This document shows, piece after piece, positions 4,833 to 41,724 of a stretch of 46,920 nt of DNA. The notes beneath the pieces are model-generated. The model worked only from the letters and a program-made list of their open reading frames with translations. It was not told where the DNA came from and made no database searches. The DNA comes from Gemmatimonadota bacterium (GTDB lineage Bacteria > 4572-55 > J002). The DNA lies in assembly GCA_003697105.1 (NCBI GenBank), contig RFFQ01000090.1, positions 1 to 46,920 on the forward strand, given 5' to 3'. The translations under genes and the position numbers were made by a program. The stretch's first letter is position 1, and each line of letters begins with the position of its first letter.

Positions 4833-6290
4833 TTAATCTTTAAATTCTGCCACCAATGCCGAGATACTTTCCTTAGCATCCCCAAACAACATGCGGGTGT
4901 TGGGTTTGAAAAACAGTGGATTCTGGACACCCGCAAAACCGGTGCGCATGGAGCGTTTCAGTACGATGGTTGTCCGTGCCTTGTCCACATCGATAATCGG
5001 CATTCCCCACAGCGGGCTGGTTTCGTCTTCACGCGCTGCCGGATTCACCACATCGTTCGCCCCGATCACCATACAGACGTCGATATTTTCTATTTTCGGA
5101 TTGATGTCATCCATTTCCACCAATTGTTCGTAAGGCACGTTTGCTTCTGCGAGGAGCACGTTCATGTGGCCGGGCATACGACCGGCAACCGGATGGATCG
5201 CATAATAGACTTCTGCTCCATTTTTTTCTAACAGATCGCCTAACTCCCGTACGACGTGCTGGGCTTGTGCCACTGCCAAGCCATAACCGGGCACAAAGGC
5301 GACGGAACTGGCGGCTTCCAACAACAGATAGGTATCTTCCGGGCTAATCGGTTTGACTTCACCCTCTACTTGCTTACCAGCACCTGCCGTTGTGGCACCA
5401 AAACCACTGAATAACACATTTGCCAGAGAGCGATTCATCGCTTTACACATGATGTTGGTCAGAATCAACCCGCTGGCGCCGACCAACGCTCCGGCAACGA
5501 TCAACACATTATTTAAAATCACGAAACCGGCGGCGCACGCCGCTAAACCGGAATAACTGTTCAGCAAAGAGATCACCACGGGCATATCCCCACCGCCGAT
5601 AGAAATCACGGCTAAAATTCCTAAAATCAGGGAGATAATCACAATGGCGATAAAGATGCCGTAGGCGCCGGCAACGGGGTTCATGGCAAACATGACGCCA
5701 CCGACCACCGCCGCAATCAATAGAATCGCATTGACGATATTTTGGCCGGGGAAAACGATGGCTTGCGACGGCATGGTTTCGCTAAGCTTGCCCCACGCGA
5801 TCACACTCCCGGAAAACGTCACCCCACCGATCAACACGGCAATAGCAATCACGCTGGCTTCAAATCCGCCAAGGGGTGCAGCCTGAAAAACTTCCGTATT
5901 GTAAAGGGATCGCTGAAATTCCGCCCAAGCTAATAACAAACTGGCTAAACCACCGGAACCGTTAAACAGACCGACCATTTCCGGCATGGCGGTCATCTTC
6001 ACCGTTTTGGCGGCAATCAGCCCGATCAAGCCACCGATAATCGCCCCTAACGCAATCCATTTATAACCACTAAAAATCAACTCCCCGGTGTGCGCGTTGA
6101 TCAGAATATCTTTATCAAATAAGGTTACGACCACTGCCAGAGCCATCCCCAACGCGGAAATCATATTCCCTTTGCGGGCAGTTGTGGCGGAACTTAACAT
6201 TTTTAGACCAAATACAAATAATAACGCCGCAACAATATAAACTAGGTTGATCGGTAGCTCCAAATTTTGGATAAATTGCACAGAATTCAT
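4833..6290 (-). CDS. pntB: NAD(P) transhydrogenase subunit beta
   Basis: MTAMPEMV, GGGDMPVVISLLNSYSG, AIHPVAGRMPGHMNVLLAEA, GANDVVNP motifs. Confidence 0.96.
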   Translation of the reverse strand: MNSVQFIQNLELPINLVYIVAALLFVFGLKMLSSATTARKGNMISALGMALAVVVTLFDKDILINAHTGELIFSGYKWIALGAIIGGLIGLIAAKTVKMTAMPEMVGLFNGSGGLASLLLAWAEFQRSLYNTEVFQAAPLGGFEASVIAIAVLIGGVTFSGSVIAWGKLSETMPSQAIVFPGQNIVNAILLIAAVVGGVMFAMNPVAGAYGIFIAIVIISLILGILAVISIGGGDMPVVISLLNSYSGLAACAAGFVILNNVLIVAGALVGASGLILTNIMCKAMNRSLANVLFSGFGATTAGAGKQVEGEVKPISPEDTYLLLEAASSVAFVPGYGLAVAQAQHVVRELGDLLEKNGAEVYYAIHPVAGRMPGHMNVLLAEANVPYEQLVEMDDINPKIENIDVCMVIGANDVVNPAAREDETSPLWGMPIIDVDKARTTIVLKRSMRTGFAGVQNPLFFKPNTRMLFGDAKESISALVAEFKD

Positions 6291-33518: not shown

Positions 33519-34688
33519 ATGCACAGTACGATTCCCATGAGTTTTGTAACCAAAGCGGCTCAAACCCCAGATGTTCTCTTTGCCATCATGAAAGCGATGG
33601 CAAAAAAGAAGATGTTTTACCACTTTACGGATTATATGGCGTCCCAACATAAGCCGCTCCGGCTGGGTCAAATTAGCCTCAAGATTACCAATGTGTGCAA
33701 CTTGCGCTGTAAAATGTGCGGACAGTGGGGCGAAAGTGGTTACAACCATGATAAATCTATGGCAGAACTGAAAGATGTGGTCCCATTGGAAACGTATAAG
33801 CGCATGGTGGATGAAGTCAAAGACGATAAGCCGTTCATTTACATTTGGGGAGGCGAACCGTTTCTTTACCCGGATTTGGTGCCTTTGCTCCGGTACATGA
33901 AGGAAGCCGGTTTAATGGGTTCTGTGGTGACCAATGCGGTCAAACTGGAAAAATACGCCGCCGAACTGGTTGACATTGGTTGGGATGCCTTCATGGTTTC
34001 GCTGGATGGTCCAAAAGACATCCATAATGAAATTCGGGGACATAAAGATAGCTATGACAAAGTCATTAACGGTATTACCCGACTAAATGAAGAAAAGCGG
34101 AAACAAGGAAAGAAAAAACCGTATACCATGATTTTGACCACCGTCATGCGGGACAATCCCCATGCGTTGTTCGATGTCTTCAAAATTGCGGAAGAGATTG
34201 AAGCCAGTTGTGTGGTGGTCTATTATTGCTGGTTCACCACAGAAGAGCGGGTCAAAGACCATACCCGCCAGATGCAAACCCGCTTTAACATTACGCCGTG
34301 GTCGGTGCATGGCTATGTTGCCGATTGGCATAACGTGAATGACCGGGAGCTTCAGGAGAGTGTGAAACGCATTAAATCCCACAAATGGAAAATGCCTTAC
34401 GTCTTCTATCCCGAATTGGAGATTGAGGACATCCCCCGATACTACAATGAACCGGGGAATTTCTTCGGACATGACAAATGTATCTCGATCTACACCACCG
34501 CAGAAGTCATGCCCAATGGGGATGTGGCAACCTGTCGCGATTACCCAGATTACATCACAGGCAATATCCGTGAAAATTCCATCAAAGAGATTTTCAACAA
34601 TGACAAATACTGGAAATTCCGCAACTCCATCAAAAATGAGGGGATGTTACCAATCTGTGCCCGCTGTTGCGGATTAATGGGGTTTTAA
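33519..34688 (+). CDS. Radical SAM protein with SPASM/Twitch-like C-terminal domain
   Basis: CNLRCKMC, WGGEPF, VSLDG; C-terminal C...PNGDVATC...GNI...CARCC; AAGGAG RBS. Confidence 0.88.
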   Translation: MHSTIPMSFVTKAAQTPDVLFAIMKAMAKKKMFYHFTDYMASQHKPLRLGQISLKITNVCNLRCKMCGQWGESGYNHDKSMAELKDVVPLETYKRMVDEVKDDKPFIYIWGGEPFLYPDLVPLLRYMKEAGLMGSVVTNAVKLEKYAAELVDIGWDAFMVSLDGPKDIHNEIRGHKDSYDKVINGITRLNEEKRKQGKKKPYTMILTTVMRDNPHALFDVFKIAEEIEASCVVVYYCWFTTEERVKDHTRQMQTRFNITPWSVHGYVADWHNVNDRELQESVKRIKSHKWKMPYVFYPELEIEDIPRYYNEPGNFFGHDKCISIYTTAEVMPNGDVATCRDYPDYITGNIRENSIKEIFNNDKYWKFRNSIKNEGMLPICARCCGLMGF

Positions 34689-34715: not shown

Positions 34716-34752
34716 AAAAAAACGCCTCGATCTGAATGGATCGAGGCGTTTT
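34716..34752. terminator. Bidirectional terminator between the radical SAM gene and the redox operon
   Basis: AAAAAAA-CGCCTCGATC-TGAATG-GATCGAGGCG-TTTT. Confidence 0.85.
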
Positions 34753-34765
34753 GCTATGTTGTGAT

Positions 34766-34957
34766 TTATGCAGATGGTGAAGATGAGGTTTCCTCTATCT
34801 CCAGGGGATCAACTGCAACGGTGTTGTCGTGCCGTGGAACCTCCACGTTACAGGCTTCGCCCATTCAGGTGGGCACCCCCATCGCCGGAAAGACCCAGCG
34901 CATCAGGATAAACCAACCCGCAAAAATTAACAACACGGAAAAATCTTCAAATTGCAT
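34766..34957 (-). CDS. Putative 63-aa single-pass membrane selenoprotein (Sec31), absent from the ORF track
   Basis: TAAGGAG RBS then ATG 34957; MQFEDFSVLLIFAGWFILMRWVFPAMGVPT-[TGA 34867-34865]-MGEACNVEVPRHDNTVAVDPLEIEETSSSPSA-TAA; SECIS-like hairpin after the UGA; TAA lies 14 bp before the terminator. Confidence 0.65.
34830..34852 (-). promoter_or_regulatory. Candidate bacterial SECIS element of the small selenoprotein
   Basis: mRNA UGU-AA-CGUGGA-GGU-UCCACG-GCA; stem begins 12 nt after the UGA; apical loop starts with G. Confidence 0.55.
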
Positions 34958-34966
34958 GGGTGCTCC

Positions 34967-35404
34967 TTAGGGTTGAACGACAATTTCAGGTTCTAGGTGG
35001 ACGGCGGTTTTCATGGAATTGGAGATCAAACAAACCTTTTCCGCTTTCGTAATGATGCGTATCGCCCGGTCGCGTTTATCTTCGTGGGGAATGACAATGC
35101 GCGGTCGCAACGTGATTTCGGTAATCATAAACCCGTTTTCGGTCTTTTCCAGCACTCCTTCGGCACTGGAGGAGTAGCTGGTAAATTCCAGTTTAGAGTT
35201 TTCGGCAATCGCCAAAAAGGTGGTCATCAAACAGATTTCCGCCGATGCCACAAATAGATGTTCTGGTGACCAGATGCCGGGATGTCCTTTCGGGAACTCC
35301 GGAGGTGTTGCGACTTCTATATCAGGCAGACCCTCACTGGAGAGGATACCTTTCCGTTGTTCATCCCACCGGAGACTCGTCGTATAAATATGTTTATCTG
35401 CCAT
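34967..35404 (-). CDS. OsmC/Ohr family protein
   Basis: ATPPEFPKG, WSPEHLFVASAEICLMTTF, AEKVCLISNS (two conserved Cys). Confidence 0.88.
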   Translation of the reverse strand: MADKHIYTTSLRWDEQRKGILSSEGLPDIEVATPPEFPKGHPGIWSPEHLFVASAEICLMTTFLAIAENSKLEFTSYSSSAEGVLEKTENGFMITEITLRPRIVIPHEDKRDRAIRIITKAEKVCLISNSMKTAVHLEPEIVVQP

Positions 35405-35406
35405 TA

Positions 35407-36141
35407 TTATTCCTCTGATTCCACCGAATTTAACACATTCTGAATACCGGCAATCAATTGCTGCTCGCTGGGCTTACCGAGAATTTCATTTCCCCCATTG
35501 ATCAAGGTTTGCGGGACGCCTCGCGTTTGATATTTTTGCACCAGATGGGGAAACTCACCGGCCATAACCATCTCTGCCCGAATGTTAGAGTTATGCAATG
35601 CCATTTTTTGAGCAAGCTTCACGGCTTGCGGGCAGTGCGGTCAGGTAGGAGTTACCATGACCTCCAAAACGACCGGCGCCTCAACCTGTTGCAGTGATGC
35701 TTTCGTCTGAGAAGAAAGTGCCGGTAACTCGCCACCAATCATCTGAAGTGACTCCAGAAATGCCGGAAATTCGTATCCCCCGGGCACACCGTAAATCCGC
35801 ACATTGGTATCTTTCCTTTCCCGCAGGATGACCGTTGCCGGGATTTTATCAACCCCGTATTTTTGGGCAATGGCGGCATCTTTTTGCAGGTCATAGACTT
35901 CCAGTCGGATATTGGGGACTAAATGGGCAATTTCGGTCATCAGAGTACGGGCGGTTTCGCACGATTCACACTCGAATTCTTGGGTAAATTGCACCAAGGT
36001 GATTTTGGTATTTAATTCCTGAAGCTCATTTTTCACCCGTTCTTGTTGTTGTTCATTCAACAATTTGAATTCAAAGGGCTTTGAGCAGGCAACTAACAGC
36101 ACAAACACGGGTATAAGCATGAGATACGTTATTGATTTCAT
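35407..36141 (-). CDS. Selenocysteine-containing protein disulfide oxidoreductase (PDO / AhpF-N-terminal-like, two thioredoxin folds), lipoprotein; 244 aa, Sec167
   Basis: ORF-track pieces 35641..36141 and 35407..35622 are in frame; the junction reads VMVTPT-[TGA 35643-35641]-PHCPQAVKLAQKMA, i.e. UxxC at the family's TPTCPxC site; first site CESC; lipobox LVAC; GVP cis-Pro motif in the C-terminal piece. Confidence 0.88.
35612..35629 (-). promoter_or_regulatory. Candidate bacterial SECIS element of the PDO gene
   Basis: mRNA GCAAGC-CGUGAA-GCUUGC; stem begins 11 nt after the UGA; G at loop position 2. Confidence 0.65.
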
Positions 36142-36347
36142 GGATTTTCCTCAAGCAAACGGTTCATCTCTTCCAAAATTTCATCTAAATTTTTGATACC
36201 CTTTTGGGCGGCGGCTTCACCTAATGTACCCCAGATGGCATCCCCACAAGCCAAACATCGGATGTTATAGGTGCGCAGGGGTTGGATCAACTGCGGATAA
36301 TTTTCCACAATCTCTTCGATGTAGGTATCAGCAGTGATTTTCGCCAT
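36138..36347 (-). CDS. DUF1858-like small CxxC protein
   Basis: KITADTYIEEIVENYP...IRCLACG...TLGEAAAQKG; AGGAGGT RBS; ATGA overlap with the PDO gene. Confidence 0.75.
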   Translation of the reverse strand: MAKITADTYIEEIVENYPQLIQPLRTYNIRCLACGDAIWGTLGEAAAQKGIKNLDEILEEMNRLLEENP

Positions 36348-36361
36348 GTTGCACCTCCTGA

Positions 36362-36829
36362 TTAGGATTGTGCCCGAAGTTCTTGTTCGATACGCTCATC
36401 CATCTCACTGGAGATCGATTCGACAACCGGCATGGCGGACGTTGCCGCCGTGGTTTGTCTTCGCCAGTAGAGCAGAATTAAAATCACCATGATCACCCCC
36501 AAAACCAGCATAATCACGGGCATGATCCACGCCACCATATTAAAGCCTTCCCGGGTGGGGATCGATAAAATCTGGCTGCCATATTCGGCGATATAAAAGT
36601 CCACGATTTCATCTTTGGATTTACCTTCTTCCGCCATTTGATTGACTTCGCGGCGCATGGTCATTGCAATGTCGGATTCATGATCCGCAATGGGAGACCG
36701 CCAACAACACGGCGCCAGCAATTCTTGCTGTGCTTCGGCAGCAACTTTTTTCTGTTCTGGGGTCAGTTCCGCATAACTCGTCGTTGCGAAGACTAGCAAC
36801 GTAATTAATAGCCATCTGACACACTTCAT
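36362..36829 (-). CDS. CcmH/NrfF-like exported redox protein with vicinal Cys-Cys and C-terminal TM anchor
   Basis: Signal peptide; LLAPCCWRSPIADHES...MRREV...GKSKDEIVDFYIAEYGSQILSIP...AWIMP. Confidence 0.8.
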   Translation of the reverse strand: MKCVRWLLITLLVFATTSYAELTPEQKKVAAEAQQELLAPCCWRSPIADHESDIAMTMRREVNQMAEEGKSKDEIVDFYIAEYGSQILSIPTREGFNMVAWIMPVIMLVLGVIMVILILLYWRRQTTAATSAMPVVESISSEMDERIEQELRAQS

Positions 36830-37035
36830 GTGTTCACCTCCGGGTGGGGTTGTGATGATTCACGGCGCTTTTTCGGAGAATCCCAGCCGAGTATCAAGCC
36901 AAATAAGGCTCCGTAAAGCGTGCTGAACCACGGATTTGCGGTAATAGGGCATGTGCCGCTGAGGCAACCCACGTATTGGTAATATAAAAATCCGGCTGTC
37001 GCACCGAGAACAGTAAAAATAAGTCCCTTTTTCAT
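36826..37035 (-). CDS. DUF6132-like two-TM protein with CxxxxC loop
   Basis: [41 protein letters not shown] overlaps at both ends. Confidence 0.75.
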
Positions 37036-37400
37036 GCGAATTGGTCTAACACCTCATCAAATTTATTTTTTAGAGCCGGTTTCGGTAATGCCCCGACCAC
37101 TCGATCAATTTCTTCACCATTTTTGAAAAAAATCAGGGTTGGAATGCCCCGGATGCCAAATTTTTGCGGCGTCTGCGGGTTGTCATCCGTATTGAGCTTA
37201 CAAACTTTGATCTTATGTTGGTATTCCGCGGCAAGCTCTTCCACAATGGGTCCCACCATCCGGCACGGACCGCACCACGGTGCCCAAAAATCTACCAACA
37301 CTGGTATGTCAGATTTTAATACATCGGTTTCAAAGGAGTCATCGGTTACGGTGACGGCAACATGGGTTTCATCTCTTTGTCCCTTGGAAAATAATCCCAT
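37032..37400 (-). CDS. trxA: Thioredoxin
   Basis: [22 protein letters not shown]. Confidence 0.96.
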
Positions 37401-37659
37401 ACGTTTTAGTTTACAAAATCAGACCATCACTGATTTTGAGGGATGCCTTTCTTCACCCCAAATAAATTAAAATGATAACAGTCCTGAACCGAAGCCAACC
37501 TTTTACCGCTGGCTTCAAATCTGCTTGATCGAAGTCAAAATATAGTAAAATTGACCCCAAAAGACAACGGGTTATTTCAACCCGGTTATTTAGATTACCG
37601 GAATAAGGTCACTTTTGCGTCACAAATTCATCTATTTTTCACCGAATTGGGAGGTTATC

Positions 37660-40600
37660 ATGTCACATCGCATCGTCATAAATGTCCTTCTTTATATTTC
37701 TCTGATATTCTCACCCGTCCTTTTTGCCGAAACCGCACAACAGGTGCTGGATCAAGCGCCTACCGGCTCGTATCTCATCCCCGGTACGCTTATTTTACAG
37801 TTGAATGAAATTCCAGCGACCGTGGAATCCCACGAAGGAATCATCCGCACCGGCATCGCACCAATTGACGCATTGAACGCCCAGTTTGGTGTGTATCATA
37901 TGGCACCGCTTTTCCCCTTAGACCCCACCGCACCAACCATTGGGCAGGAGCGTTTAGCTGGCTTTTACCGGATTCAGTTTCCGGCGGAGGTTGCCCTCGA
38001 TCCGGTGAAAACCGCTTACGAGCATCTGGCCGAAATCGATCAGGTGCAATTTGATGTTGCTTGCCCGGTCTATGAAACGCCCAATGATGGGTTTTTCGGT
38101 TCGCAGTGGGGCATGGTTCGTATCGATGCCCCAGCCGCCTGGGATGTGACGCATGGTAGCACTGCGGTGTCACTGGGGTCATGTGATACGGGGGTGGATT
38201 GGAATCACCCGGATTTGGGAGCCGACATCTGGCAAAACTTGGCGGAAGATGCCGATAATGATGGCCAAACCTTGATCTTTGAAGATGGCGAGTGGCAATA
38301 CGACCCGGACGACCTAAACAACACGGATGATGATGGCAACGGCTACATAGATGACTTAATCGGTTGGGATTGGGTCACCGGTGTGGATGGCGCACCCGGT
38401 GAAGATGATCAAAATCCCGATAATAATCCGATGGATTTTGACGGTCACGGAACCCATGTGGGCGGTATTCTGGGCGCCAGTACCAACAATGAAATTGGTG
38501 TTGCCGGAGTCGGCTACAATTGCCGCGTCATGTCACTGCGGATTGGCTGGCAAGACCCCAACGGTGGCGGATATGTGGGCATGTCCTTTGCCGCCCAAGC
38601 GATCCGCTACGCGACAAACCGAGGTGTTACCGCCATCAATTGCAGTTGGGGGTCATCTAACTCCGGCGGCTTGGGTGCCGCGGTGGATTATGCCGTGGCG
38701 AATGGTGTGTTGCTCGTAACGGCGGCGGGTAATGAAGGCTCGAACAATCCGTCGTATCTCAGCAGTCGGTCTGATGTGATGTCAGTTGCCGCCACCAATC
38801 AAGCCGATCAAAAAGCCGGTTTTTCCAACTATGGCTCGTGGGTGGATGTTTCGGCGCCGGGGGTCAATATCCGTAGTACCATGTTTAATAACCGGTATGA
38901 ATATCTTAGTGGCACCTCAATGGCGGCGCCCCATGTGGCAGGTCTGGCAGGTCTGGTTAAATCCCTCGCTCCTGATTGGGACGGGGCAGCGATTTTTGCA
39001 CAAATTGAGTCCACAACGGATAACATTGATGCGATCAATCCCGATTATGCCGGAATGCTGGGCAGTGGGCGTATCAACGCCTTTCGGGCGGTGGAAACAC
39101 TGGGCGTCTTTCCAGCGTTGGAGTTTGAACCTGAACAATTCACCGTTGAACTCCGGCAAGGGGATGCCCCGTCCGAGCAGATATTGACCTTGTGGAATGT
39201 GGGAGAAGCACCGTTGGAGTACGCCCTTTCCGATAATCGATTTTGGATTAATCTACCGGATGAGCCGGATGGCATCATTGAACCCGGTGAAAGTGAAGAG
39301 ATCGTCATCCGCATTGGCTACCAGCAATTAGAACCCGGCGATTATACAGGGCGCATCTTACTGGAAACCAATGACCCAGCACATGCTCAGGTGGAAATTC
39401 CGGTAACCTTAACCGTCACCGAACCGTCCATTGACCCCATTGCCGTGCATGTGCCCACGGGCTTGGTTGCCGCGCCGGGTACAACGGTGAATGTACCGGT
39501 CATTACGGCGCCGGTCTCGCCAGATTTAGAAGTGCTAGGGGTCCAAATCGAACTCACCTACGATCCGTCAGTCCTGCAAGCAACTGGTTTTAGTACAGAT
39601 GGGACATTGCTGGATGGGTGGATTATGAATTTCAACCCCAATGAGGCAGGTTTGGTAGTACTGAACGGCTTCAATCTCAATTCCTTGGCAGGTGAAGGTG
39701 TATTAGCCTTTCTCCAATTTGAGGTTATCGGAGAAATGGGTGCACAAAGTGTGCTCCATTTTCAGTCGTTTATGTACAACGAAGGTGAGCCGCCAGTTAT
39801 CACCCAGGATGGTGATCTTACCGTCGGGGCATTGCTGACGGTCTCTCTCCCCCCGCACGCTAGCGGGCAACCGGGTGAGTTCGTTAGACTACCGGTACAA
39901 ATCCATGAAGATGTCTCCGGAATGGGAATTTTTGCCTTCCAGATGGAGGTCAGCTATGATCCGGCAGTACTAGAATTGGTCAATTATCAGTCGGAAGGCA
40001 CCCTGACCGAAGGCTGGTTTATGAACCTGAATGCAGGCGAAGGCAATTTTATCCTAAACGGCTTTAGTGCAGAGGAGATGAGCGGCAGCGGTACCCTGAT
40101 TGAGCTGGAATTTGAGGTGGTGGGTAACGTGAATGATGAAACCAGCCTGCATTTTGAAGCGTTCCAGTTCAATGAAGGTGATCCGGCGGCACATACCCGG
40201 GATGGGCATTTTCGCATTCCGTTGAATGTCTTTTTACCCCCGGATGCGGCGGCGGGACCGGGTCAGACCATCCCTCTACCAGTGATGCTGGGCACCGATG
40301 TCACCGGTTTGGAAATCTTTGCCTTTGAATTGCGCATCCGCTTTGATGAAACGATTTTAAACCCAATAGGCGCCATCACCGCCGGTACCTTAACCGACGG
40401 TTGGACAATCGCCCAAAATCTTGAAAACCCGGGTGAATTCTATGTCAACGGATTTAATATCAGTGAGTTAGCCGGTCAAGGAGTGATGATCCTGCTCAAC
40501 ATGGAAGTTATCGGGGAGATCGATCAGGAGACCCCCCTCGAGTTCATTGAATTTATATTTAACGAAGGTGTTCCGGCAGCAGATACACACAACGGGCATT

Positions 40601-41724
40601 TTACGGTGCGCCAAGTGACCTTTTCGATTCGCGGCTCTGCCCATTACCGCGATGCGCCAGATCAACCGGTGGGGAATATCCATTTAACCTTGAGCGGCGA
40701 AACGGAATTTTCCACCGTAACAACTCCTGAAGGGGAATTTATCTTCACCGATATTCCCGGCGCGGATTATCTGCTAACCCCCGAAAAAACCGACGAGATC
40801 AACGGTATCAGCCCATTTGATGCCGCGCGAGTCGCACAATACGTGGCAGAATTATACGAATTTACCCCCTACCAACAACTGGCGGCAGATGTGACCGGTA
40901 ACGGGGAAATTTCCACTTACGATGCGGCACAGATTGCACTCTATAGCGCGGAACTGCCACACGCTTCTGTCACCGGTACGTGGACATTTGACCCGCTAAC
41001 CTACGCTTACCAACCTCTGGATGCGGATCAAATCGATCAGAATTTTACGACCATTTTGATGGGTGAAGTTTCTGGAAATTGGGCATCTTCAAGGGATAAA
41101 AGCGGATGGTTCAAAGGTGAAACGGCAAGTATCGAACGCCCGCAGGTGAACATCAAAATGGCACAAAATCGAGTACAACTGGTTGAAAATATGGACAATG
41201 TGATTGCATTTGAATTCATCATAGCGTCGGAGATCGATCCGGAAGTGCAACTGGCAGAAACGGTTCCGGCAGATTGGGTGTTACTGGCAAACCGCTTGGA
41301 TGTATCGCGCTGGTATGTAGGCGCATATGGAACGACGCCATTAACATCCCCCGATCTGCTACGCATAGGGAACGGAACACATCTGACCATTCTTTCCGGG
41401 CAAATCAATGAACAACCGGTTCGCTGGGTTGTCGGTCAGGAAACCCTGACGCCCCAAGCCTACGTCCTGCACCCAAACTATCCCAATCCCTTCAATCCCC
41501 AAACAACGATCCGGTTTGATCTGCCTTCCGCGGATCAGATCAGTCTGAATATTTATAATTTGAGTGGAAAATTAGTACAGCAAGTTATCCAAAATCAATA
41601 TTACTCCGCCGGATCGCACACAGTCGAATGGGACGCCAGCAATTTATCCTCCGGGGTGTATCTCTATCAACTGGAAACCCTCCACCACCAATCCCAAATC
41701 CGGCGCGCCGTGGTACTGAAGTAA
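37660..41724 (+). CDS. Secreted S8 (subtilisin-like) serine peptidase with BACON-like Ig domain, three cohesin-like domains, a dockerin-like domain and a C-terminal sorting domain
   Basis: ATG 37660 behind GGAGG; catalytic DTGVD / HGTHV / GTSMA; three ~128-aa repeats (Y/FDxxVL...GTLxxGW...NGF...G.GxL...EVxG...NEG); GISPFDAARVAQY...AADVTGNGEISTYDA; NYPNPFNP. Confidence 0.9.
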   Translation: MSHRIVINVLLYISLIFSPVLFAETAQQVLDQAPTGSYLIPGTLILQLNEIPATVESHEGIIRTGIAPIDALNAQFGVYHMAPLFPLDPTAPTIGQERLAGFYRIQFPAEVALDPVKTAYEHLAEIDQVQFDVACPVYETPNDGFFGSQWGMVRIDAPAAWDVTHGSTAVSLGSCDTGVDWNHPDLGADIWQNLAEDADNDGQTLIFEDGEWQYDPDDLNNTDDDGNGYIDDLIGWDWVTGVDGAPGEDDQNPDNNPMDFDGHGTHVGGILGASTNNEIGVAGVGYNCRVMSLRIGWQDPNGGGYVGMSFAAQAIRYATNRGVTAINCSWGSSNSGGLGAAVDYAVANGVLLVTAAGNEGSNNPSYLSSRSDVMSVAATNQADQKAGFSNYGSWVDVSAPGVNIRSTMFNNRYEYLSGTSMAAPHVAGLAGLVKSLAPDWDGAAIFAQIESTTDNIDAINPDYAGMLGSGRINAFRAVETLGVFPALEFEPEQFTVELRQGDAPSEQILTLWNVGEAPLEYALSDNRFWINLPDEPDGIIEPGESEEIVIRIGYQQLEPGDYTGRILLETNDPAHAQVEIPVTLTVTEPSIDPIAVHVPTGLVAAPGTTVNVPVITAPVSPDLEVLGVQIELTYDPSVLQATGFSTDGTLLDGWIMNFNPNEAGLVVLNGFNLNSLAGEGVLAFLQFEVIGEMGAQSVLHFQSFMYNEGEPPVITQDGDLTVGALLTVSLPPHASGQPGEFVRLPVQIHEDVSGMGIFAFQMEVSYDPAVLELVNYQSEGTLTEGWFMNLNAGEGNFILNGFSAEEMSGSGTLIELEFEVVGNVNDETSLHFEAFQFNEGDPAAHTRDGHFRIPLNVFLPPDAAAGPGQTIPLPVMLGTDVTGLEIFAFELRIRFDETILNPIGAITAGTLTDGWTIAQNLENPGEFYVNGFNISELAGQGVMILLNMEVIGEIDQETPLEFIEFIFNEGVPAADTHNGHFTVRQVTFSIRGSAHYRDAPDQPVGNIHLTLSGETEFSTVTTPEGEFIFTDIPGADYLLTPEKTDEINGISPFDAARVAQYVAELYEFTPYQQLAADVTGNGEISTYDAAQIALYSAELPHASVTGTWTFDPLTYAYQPLDADQIDQNFTTILMGEVSGNWASSRDKSGWFKGETASIERPQVNIKMAQNRVQLVENMDNVIAFEFIIASEIDPEVQLAETVPADWVLLANRLDVSRWYVGAYGTTPLTSPDLLRIGNGTHLTILSGQINEQPVRWVVGQETLTPQAYVLHPNYPNPFNPQTTIRFDLPSADQISLNIYNLSGKLVQQVIQNQYYSAGSHTVEWDASNLSSGVYLYQLETLHHQSQIRRAVVLK

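Follow-up and report, generated by a model that had tools for sequence, protein, structure and literature searches.

The window analyzed here is a 46,920-nucleotide stretch of contig RFFQ01000090.1 (GenBank assembly GCA_003697105.1; Gemmatimonadota) from a hot-spring bacterium, whose assembly comprises 4.18 Mb in 199 contigs and is 96.85% complete. On its minus strand, from position 37400 down to 34766, seven co-directional open reading frames (ORFs; g1 to g7) are present. The last of them, g7, appears to encode a small membrane selenoprotein, and belongs to a family that is widespread among the sampled genomes, is represented by no model in Pfam or NCBIfam and does not appear in the 2026 inventory of selenoprotein families (PMC13188914).

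The ORFs are tightly packed: ATGA overlaps join g1 to g2, g2 to g3 and g4 to g5, and the remaining junctions have gaps of 14, 2 and 9 nt. An intrinsic terminator (34719..34752, minus strand; 14-bp stem followed by a T run), the strongest of the region, abuts the TAA of g7 and closes the unit. As the flanking genes are divergent on one side and convergent on the other, the operon is self-contained. An earlier reading made without database searches (hereafter the sequence-only reading) had described a seven-gene unit with Cys and selenocysteine (Sec) motifs, tight junctions and a single terminator, from which dsbD, ccdA, ccmA-G and trxB were absent. All seven ORFs were found, with three ATGA overlaps and no gap above 14 nt, and none of those genes lies in the unit. 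There is no regulator gene within the operon, and the window gave no Rfam match at gathering thresholds and no ARAGORN match.

Each of the six products of g1 to g6 scores above the cut-off of a curated model in Pfam, NCBIfam or both. The first gene, g1 (37032..37400; minus strand, like all features of the operon), is a trxA of 122 aa with a WCGPC motif (PF00085, E 6.7e-34; TIGR01068, 133.1 bits against a cut-off of 96.8). It is followed by g2 (36826..37035), a 69-aa DUF6132 protein with two short Gly-rich hydrophobic segments around a CLSGTC motif (PF19628, 32.6 against 23.2), and by g3 (36362..36829), a CcmH-like protein of 155 aa with an N-terminal hydrophobic leader, an APCCW motif and a C-terminal transmembrane (TM) segment at residues 102-120 (PF03918, 91.4 against 25). 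The product of g4 (36138..36347; 69 aa, CLAC) is of the DUF1858 small redox-disulfide type (PF08984, 33.9 against 32.2), although its TIGR03980 score of 40.9 stays under the 44.95 cut-off. A protein disulfide oxidoreductase (PDO) selenoprotein of the PDO_seleno_TRX type (TIGR02187, 236.3 against 185) is encoded by g5 (35407..36141; 244 aa), with CESC in domain 1 and UPHC in domain 2. The single TGA inside its match (35641..35643) corresponds to residue 167, and a hairpin resembling a selenocysteine insertion sequence (SECIS; 35612..35629; 6-bp stem GCAAGC/GCUUGC, loop CGUGAA) begins 14 nt past the U of this UGA. The OsmC/Ohr-type g6 (34967..35404; 145 aa; PF02566, 63.7 against 27.5) has no leader; two Cys are seen in its sequence, and it stays below the cut-off of every OsmC, Ohr or selenoprotein subfamily model.

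The seventh gene, g7 (34766..34957), would encode 63 aa with one N-terminal hydrophobic helix, the motif FPAMGVPT-U-MGEA-C, in which Sec would be residue 31 (TGA, 34865..34867), and an acidic tail. It has no Pfam or NCBIfam match at E values up to 0.1, and word-index protein searches gave no match for it (for g3 they returned the query alone). The first homologue, with its TGA at the identical codon, adjoined a DUF6132 gene in another genome. A two-sequence g7 profile was then searched in six frames against 401 genomes, a sample that was picked by relatedness to this isolated lineage, includes two genomes of the same class and has many Sec users, with selA in 178 of the 401. Matches were found in 44 genomes; the one in G250 was a false positive on inspection, two matches were left out of inspection, and the 43 genomes with true matches span 32 families. 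Exactly one TGA is present in 39 of the 44 best matches, and four true matches without a TGA stop right before one. Of 41 translated loci, 40 have the TGA behind G(V/I)xT, at one and the same codon, the 41st being that of G250. Family members share a short acidic N-terminus, one hydrophobic helix, the sequence (V/I)LP(K/R)(L/M)G(V/I)(P/S)T, the TGA and, in most cases, a Cys five residues further; the motif after the TM helix reads LPxxG(V/I)(P/S)T-U-x4-C. The selA gene occurs in all 43 genomes with a true g7, as compared to 135 of the 357 genomes without a g7 match. The source genome itself has the machinery for decoding Sec (selA, selB, selD and tRNA-Sec).

Two further observations concern this material. 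The selD gene of the source genome (G000:C12:941-1864, minus strand) holds one in-frame TGA, and its product would thus be a selenoprotein itself. Furthermore, sub-groups of the g7 family (L133, L150, L151 and L135, L137, L138, L141, L142, L146, L149, L152) differ after the Sec position, some with U-x7 to U-x12-C spacing and a few without a nearby Cys (U-AVP...), so that the resolving partner may differ by group.

A SECIS-like hairpin (34833..34847; CGUGGA-GGU-UCCACG) begins 20 nt past the U of the g7 UGA. Of 22 family members, 16 have a perfect hairpin of at least 6 bp starting 14-21 nt past this position, with GG in the loop of 15 of the 16; shuffled sequences gave 2.8 +/- 1.6 such hairpins (maximum 9 in 300 shuffles). 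When an 8-bp helix was named in the majority register, 70.2% of its cells were paired, against 44.7 +/- 3.0% after shuffling (reached in 0 of 500) and 33-43% in a slid-partner control, which somewhat favors the helix as it was derived from the same sequences. All eight pairs change on both sides, and the covariation score of the helix (0.602 against 0.206) was not reached by any of the 500 shuffles.

A HMMER scan of 1.84 billion representative proteins with the g7 family returned 51 matches. Two of these are the halves of the present g7 ORF as it has been called publicly (P0006, 30 aa, and P0005, 32 aa), one is a 2217-aa protein that was left uninspected, and 48 were retrieved. In 46 of the 48 the Sec position is occupied by Cys, and in the remaining two by W or G, the latter as would be expected if TGA were read under another code. 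The Cys-form proteins are labelled 'hypothetical' at source; none of 12 Cys forms has a meaningful NCBIfam match, and none of 44 aligned members (42 Cys forms and two Sec forms) matches Pfam.

These data bear on the possibility that g7 is no selenoprotein, the TGA ending a 30-codon ORF that is followed by a second tiny ORF or by non-coding DNA. Gene callers do split g7 in this way, and Met is frequent after the TGA, making a TGA-ATG restart conceivable. However, the residue 3' of the TGA may be M, I, L, A, S or G, and is one of the latter five in many members, a variety for which restart fails to account. Moreover, each of the 46 homologues with Cys in place of the TGA is a single ORF, the hairpin covaries, selA is present in every g7-bearing genome, and the TAA of the long reading adjoins the terminator. 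We therefore regard this explanation as highly improbable. In the field, selenoproteins are recognized computationally by a SECIS after the TGA together with Sec/Cys homologues (PMC12013277), and on these usual grounds g7 would qualify as a bacterial selenoprotein.

The genomic neighborhood of g7 homologues was examined in 40 genome loci (+/-5 kb) and in 74 metagenome loci of the Cys form; the latter are short (median 3.7 kb), and flanking genes were called as simple longest ORFs. A TrxA-type gene lies within approximately 1 kb of the homologue in 11 of the 40 genome loci, with PDO in 3 and DUF6132 in 1. In the metagenome loci, Trx is present in 12 of 74 and compact Trx-DUF6132-g7 triads in 4 of 74. 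The Cys form is adjoined by a DUF2892/YgaP-like membrane protein in 46 of 74 and by a zf-HC2 protein in 29 of 74. In 29 loci annotated with Pfam (+/-1.5 kb), neighbors include ArsR-type regulators (5 loci; also in 7 of the 74 metagenome loci), FmdB zinc ribbons (3) and CoA_binding_2 (2), in addition to an OsmC fragment and AhpC/TlpA-like, CMD and YgaP-like TM genes. In the genome G065 the order is ECF sigma factor, zf-HC2-like, TrxA, OsmC, g7, FmdB and CoA-binding.

The FmdB-type gene of G065 (L122:4414-4671, minus strand) has two in-frame TGA codons (UxxU), as does the FmdB form in the 2026 inventory. Six metagenome contigs (L166, L170, L175, L192, L205 and L207) share a cluster around the Cys form, in the order zf-HC2, Cys-form g7, DUF2892 (YgaP-like TM protein), a CydA-like-cytochrome c fusion and a protein of approximately 375 aa without a family; DUF1559/N-terminal-methylation genes border some of these loci.

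As for the genes next to the operon, the divergent one (37615-41724, plus strand) encodes a 1369-aa S8 subtilase with cohesin-/dockerin-like domains and a Por_Secre_tail (type IX secretion sorting), and the convergent one (33519-34688, plus strand), which runs toward the operon terminator, a radical SAM/SPASM protein. The latter raised the question whether g7 is the precursor of a ribosomally synthesized and post-translationally modified peptide, but the genes are convergent, and homologues of g7 have no recurrent radical SAM neighbor. A lipobox reading of GVPT-C was likewise rejected, on account of the acidic N-termini and of preceding residues that depart from the lipobox consensus.

Two in-frame fusions link the TM/Sec-or-Cys module to a WCGPC thioredoxin. 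The fusion in G193 (L156:4632-5177, minus strand) is of the Sec form, without a nearby resolving Cys, and that of P0069 is of the Cys form (208 aa). The N-termini of the family are acidic, with 0.86 D/E per N-flank against 0.05 per C-flank of the helix. The acidic N-termini and the thioredoxin fusions together point to a cytoplasmic location of the Sec/Cys motif. In these predicted features g7 is reminiscent of SELENOK and SELENOS, which are also small, with one TM helix, one Sec and a charged, probably disordered tail on the cytosolic side; the selenenylsulfide of SELENOS is reduced by the thioredoxin system. It differs from them in that its Sec would directly adjoin the membrane and be followed five residues later by a Cys, where theirs is close to the C-terminus, and in having its SECIS within the coding sequence, as bacterial genes do.

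The second small membrane protein, DUF6132 (g2), was matched in 22 of the 401 genomes, and 20 loci were fetched. Both Cys of the C-x4-C motif, which lies between the two short hydrophobic segments, are conserved without exception in an alignment of 16 members. In two genomes, both of them selA-positive, an in-frame TGA takes the place of the second Cys and is followed by a hairpin. One of these Sec forms (L080; G324:C196, about 5976-6191, plus strand) has a hairpin with a GGUC loop 16 nt after the TGA, and the other (L082; G258:C5, around 6049-6192, minus strand) continues into a Trx-like domain without CxxC. The predicted Sec forms argue for a catalytic redox pair. Of the 20 loci, 4 have a TrxA gene no more than 100 nt from DUF6132 and 7 have one anywhere in the locus; neighbors also include TrxR-like and further pyridine-nucleotide disulfide reductases, rubrerythrin, desulfoferrodoxin, Prx, OsmC, metallo-beta-lactamase (MBL)-rhodanese proteins and, once, DUF1858. 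The g7 family and DUF6132 have similar motifs, but comparison by hhalign gave a probability of only 7.8%, over 13 columns that include the shared C-x-S-G-x-C. Neither g7 nor DUF6132 matches the DUF2892 model.

The association of Trx, DUF6132 and g7, and the frequent presence of DUF2892 elsewhere, could also reflect a conserved module for dealing with soft metal(loid)s or with reactive species of sulfur or selenium at the membrane, in which the small Cys/Sec proteins would be carriers or transport accessories and not reductases of peroxides or disulfides. Operons of ArsR-type regulators (BigR or YgaV-YgaP-like) with DUF2892 have a reactive-sulfur function, and similar genes (DUF2892, rhodanese-MBL, TauE, ArsR) flank many g7 and DUF6132 homologues. 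Besides the ArsR-type regulators and the DUF2892/YgaP-like proteins mentioned above, MBL-rhodanese fusions, rhodanese, TauE/SafE or DsrE genes are found beside two other metagenome g7 loci (L168 and L190; MBL-rhodanese, TauE or DsrE) and beside DUF6132 (L074, L079 and L086). In contrast, the present operon contains no rhodanese, MBL, TauE, ArsR or DUF2892 gene, other contexts are those of classical oxygen stress (rubrerythrin, desulfoferrodoxin, Prx and OsmC), and the six long metagenome loci pair the Cys form with a CydA-like oxidase. We consider a sulfur- or metal-handling module possible, though unlikely.

The sequence-only reading had proposed that the operon passes electrons across the envelope without DsbD or CcdA, from TrxA via DUF6132 and g7 to the exported CcmH and PDO, so that DUF6132 would act as a minimal CcdA. 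Several features are in line with such a relay: DUF6132 sits between trxA and ccmH, where ccdA is often found; TrxA adjoins it in 4 of 20 loci; its invariant C-x4-C, with Sec as the second residue in two genomes, fits a catalytic redox pair; and the PDO has an export signal here and in none of 21 other homologues. However, the genome encodes a DsbD of 716 aa (DsbD_N, DsbD_TM and Thioredoxin_7) and a CcdA-like protein of 233 aa that adjoins two Trx-fold proteins of its own, these PF02683 proteins lying on other contigs. DsbD and CcdA need six or more TM segments, with Cys residues inside the membrane, whereas g2 and g7, which do not match PF02683 (DsbD_TM), have two short hydrophobic segments and one, respectively, too few for this type of transporter. 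The fusions of g7 to a WCGPC thioredoxin place its redox motif on the thioredoxin side, and in other genomes the exported partners do not accompany DUF6132 or g7.

The gene order was not conserved either; it is specific to this genome. Neither same-class genome has the operon. CcmH (also APCCW) stands alone in one of them, g7 is found in both with no Trx, PDO or OsmC gene within 5 kb, and PDO and DUF6132 gave no match in either. What recurs elsewhere are sub-modules (Trx-DUF6132, Trx-DUF6132-small ORF and Trx/OsmC/PDO-small ORF), and each gene save ccmH pairs with another of the set in some other genome. The sequence-only reading had named three observations that would speak against the relay, and two of these were made (an unconserved order, and a DsbD/CcdA elsewhere in the genome), leaving the relay unsupported; we now consider it very unlikely. 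The third, loss of the motifs, was not observed, as those of DUF6132 and the small ORF are indeed conserved. Other parts of that reading fared better: the small ORF, which it took to be genuine, has the conserved TGA, Cys forms, hairpin and selA association of a conserved selenoprotein gene, and its link to Trx and DUF6132 recurs in other genomes, in addition to the two thioredoxin fusions. A related and similarly doubtful proposal is that DUF6132 and the GVPT-U-x4-C protein form Trx-fed 'mini-CcdA' conduits, carrying thiol or selenol electrons to the outer face or into the bilayer. It would explain co-transcription with the exported CcmH and with a PDO that is exported only here and, if true, it would be a new, Sec-using route of trans-membrane electron transfer.

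The two exported members of the operon deserve separate consideration. In g5, positions 2-208 of the 209 of TIGR02187 are covered, Thioredoxin_3 matches two stretches, and UPHC lies at residues 167-170. As in the TIGR02187 family, the protein has two Trx-fold halves, with UPHC in the second half, and scores above the cut-off. It differs from the family in a lipoprotein-type leader of 26 residues (36064-36141, minus strand; MKSITYLMLIPVFVLLVAC) that ends in LVAC and is missing from all 21 other sampled PDO homologues, which are cytoplasmic. A TTG start that would make the PDO cytoplasmic was considered, but the ATG is preferred: a GAGGA precedes it by 7 nt, it shares bases with the stop codon of g4, and the 26 codons that it adds make up an entire leader of the lipoprotein type. 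The PDO is therefore probably exported in this genome only, by lineage-specific retargeting to the envelope of a normally cytoplasmic protein. A contig scan for PDO yielded four distant loci without the operon, and PDO homologues of other phyla are often found beside Trx, without the rest of the operon.

The CcmH-like g3 is the only PF03918 match in the genome, and it fits the CcmH type of an exported three-helix domain with an anchoring TM segment at the C-terminus. It aligns to 2kw0 and 2hl7 with A-P-C-C opposite C-P-K-C, such that the first Cys is replaced and the remaining ones are vicinal, and it lacks the canonical CPxC (LRCxxC) active-site motif of CcmH. None of the operon's partners was found beside CcmH homologues in 29 of 29 other loci, including 9 of 9 loci of the PCC(W/Y) subtype (+/-1.5 kb flank). 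With respect to this subtype, (A/P/S)PCC(W/Y) occurs in 10 of the 30 closest g3 matches from 301 genomes (L035, L238-L244 and L247), and another CcmH subtype has MSPACPG...DCPSGE.

The presence of these proteins could indicate an operon centered on cytochrome c maturation, in which the exported PDO replaces CcmG in reducing the variant CcmH, with the remaining genes in a supporting role. CcmB-CcmC and CcmE-CcmF are encoded at other loci and g3 is the only CcmH; DsbE/CcmG gave no match at the cut-off in the genome (best score 46.6 bits against 123), and the PDO is exported in this genome alone. Nevertheless, two TlpA/ResA-like proteins could serve as CcmG, and since ccmF is cut by the contig end a neighboring ccmG could be unassembled. 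In addition, the PCC(W/Y) CcmH occurs without operon partners in the other loci, and no part in cytochrome maturation is known for OsmC, DUF1858 or g7. We thus give this explanation little credence. The operon does resemble the Trx-DsbD/CcdA-CcmG-CcmH pathway (System I) in that a cytoplasmic Trx is encoded alongside a Cys-pair membrane protein, a Trx-fold protein that is exported and a CcmH, in a genome with CcmB, C, E and F. In contrast to System I, the membrane protein is a 69-aa DUF6132 and not DsbD_TM, the CcmH has APCC and not CPxC, a PDO selenoprotein with two domains, and not CcmG, is the exported Trx-fold member, and the genuine DsbD and CcdA are encoded outside the operon.

On balance, and with slightly better than even confidence, we favor the operon as a Trx-fed set for thiol/selenol stress defense that was assembled in this lineage and includes a new membrane-anchored selenoprotein reduced by Trx. 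Such a unit would bundle a cytoplasmic Trx with six thiol or selenol proteins, drawing its parts (Trx, PDO, OsmC, DUF1858, DUF6132 and the small membrane selenoprotein) from a widespread Trx-linked neighborhood of oxidative, disulfide and sulfur stress, together with the genome's only CcmH. Electrons would flow from NAD(P)H via a thioredoxin reductase encoded elsewhere to TrxA, and from there to clients on the cytoplasmic side, which may include the OsmC-type hydroperoxidase, the DUF1858 disulfide protein and the Sec-x4-Cys center of g7. At the inner face of the membrane, the latter would alternate between its selenol/thiol and selenenylsulfide states and act on a membrane-proximal oxidant, for example peroxide, a disulfide or sulfane sulfur. 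The exported CcmH of the PCCW subtype and the lipoprotein PDO would most likely have their role in the thiol chemistry of the periplasm, cytochrome c maturation included, with electrons supplied through the DsbD/CcdA encoded elsewhere.

The stress-defense context of g7 and DUF6132, namely the gene order in G065 and the position of DUF6132 among oxygen-stress genes, counts in favor of a Trx-fed defense set. Oxidative and thiol-stress islands are known from anaerobes, and trx genes can be under the control of SigR-RsrA-type zinc anti-sigma factors. Like those islands, the surroundings of DUF6132 contain Trx, TrxR-like proteins, PDO, rubrerythrin, desulfoferrodoxin, Prx and OsmC. The ECF sigma factor, zf-HC2-like protein, TrxA and OsmC that precede g7 in G065, and the zf-HC2 protein that 29 of the 74 metagenome loci have next to the Cys form, are similarly reminiscent of SigR-RsrA-type control, though the present operon is without a regulator. 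Neither the islands nor the SigR-RsrA systems are known to include small membrane Cys/Sec proteins.

Several points weigh against a Trx-fed defense set. No Trx was found in 29 of the 40 genome and 62 of the 74 metagenome g7 loci, within the DNA examined, and the commonest neighbors of the Cys form (DUF2892/YgaP-like and zf-HC2) are both outside this operon. Counts overstate independence, as many matches are kin or the same organism across samples. The leader of the exported PDO and the presence of CcmH are unexplained by a purely cytoplasmic stress defense. K and R are equal across the flanks of the g7 helix (0.61 vs. 0.57 per protein) and thus uninformative as to its orientation. Six of the 22 g7 members have no perfect hairpin, and RNAalifold gave 0 pairs on an ungapped 48-nt alignment, which results from hairpins occupying two registers, one codon apart. 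Finally, we infer from sequence that Sec is inserted at the g7 TGA and that the seven genes form one transcription unit, as well as the direction of electron flow, topology and substrates.

Table 1 of the 2026 inventory has 119 selenoprotein families and subfamilies, and lists DUF1858 (CxxU), OsmC-like (UxxT), FmdB (UxxU) and TIGR02187 proteins; neither a small membrane U-x4-C family nor PF19628 is among the 119 entries (PMC13188914). The comparison also covered passages of the deep-Sep (PMC12013277) and BSepDB (PMC13326102) papers. Full-text searches turned up no relevant account of the g7 family or of DUF6132 among the papers listed, those on membrane selenoproteins being eukaryotic or unrelated, which is not proof that the family was never described.

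Computation remains the main route to new selenoprotein families, and very short ORFs are overlooked systematically; a family profile of g7 would recover many missed selenoprotein genes in annotation. The Sec forms of DUF6132 would give this family a redox-catalytic reading, and the CcmH subtype with vicinal Cys residues can be flagged as unusual. In our sample, g7 is present in 43 of the 178 selA-positive genomes, or about one in four, a fraction that may not generalize given that the genomes were chosen by relatedness. If this prevalence holds more widely, the g7 family would count as one of the more widespread selenoproteins of bacteria, and as the first to consist essentially of a membrane anchor and a Sec-x4-Cys center. 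Its recurrent neighbors and the two thioredoxin fusions provide a concrete hypothesis, that of a Trx-reduced selenol at the membrane surface, for which Cys-form genes are available to genetics.

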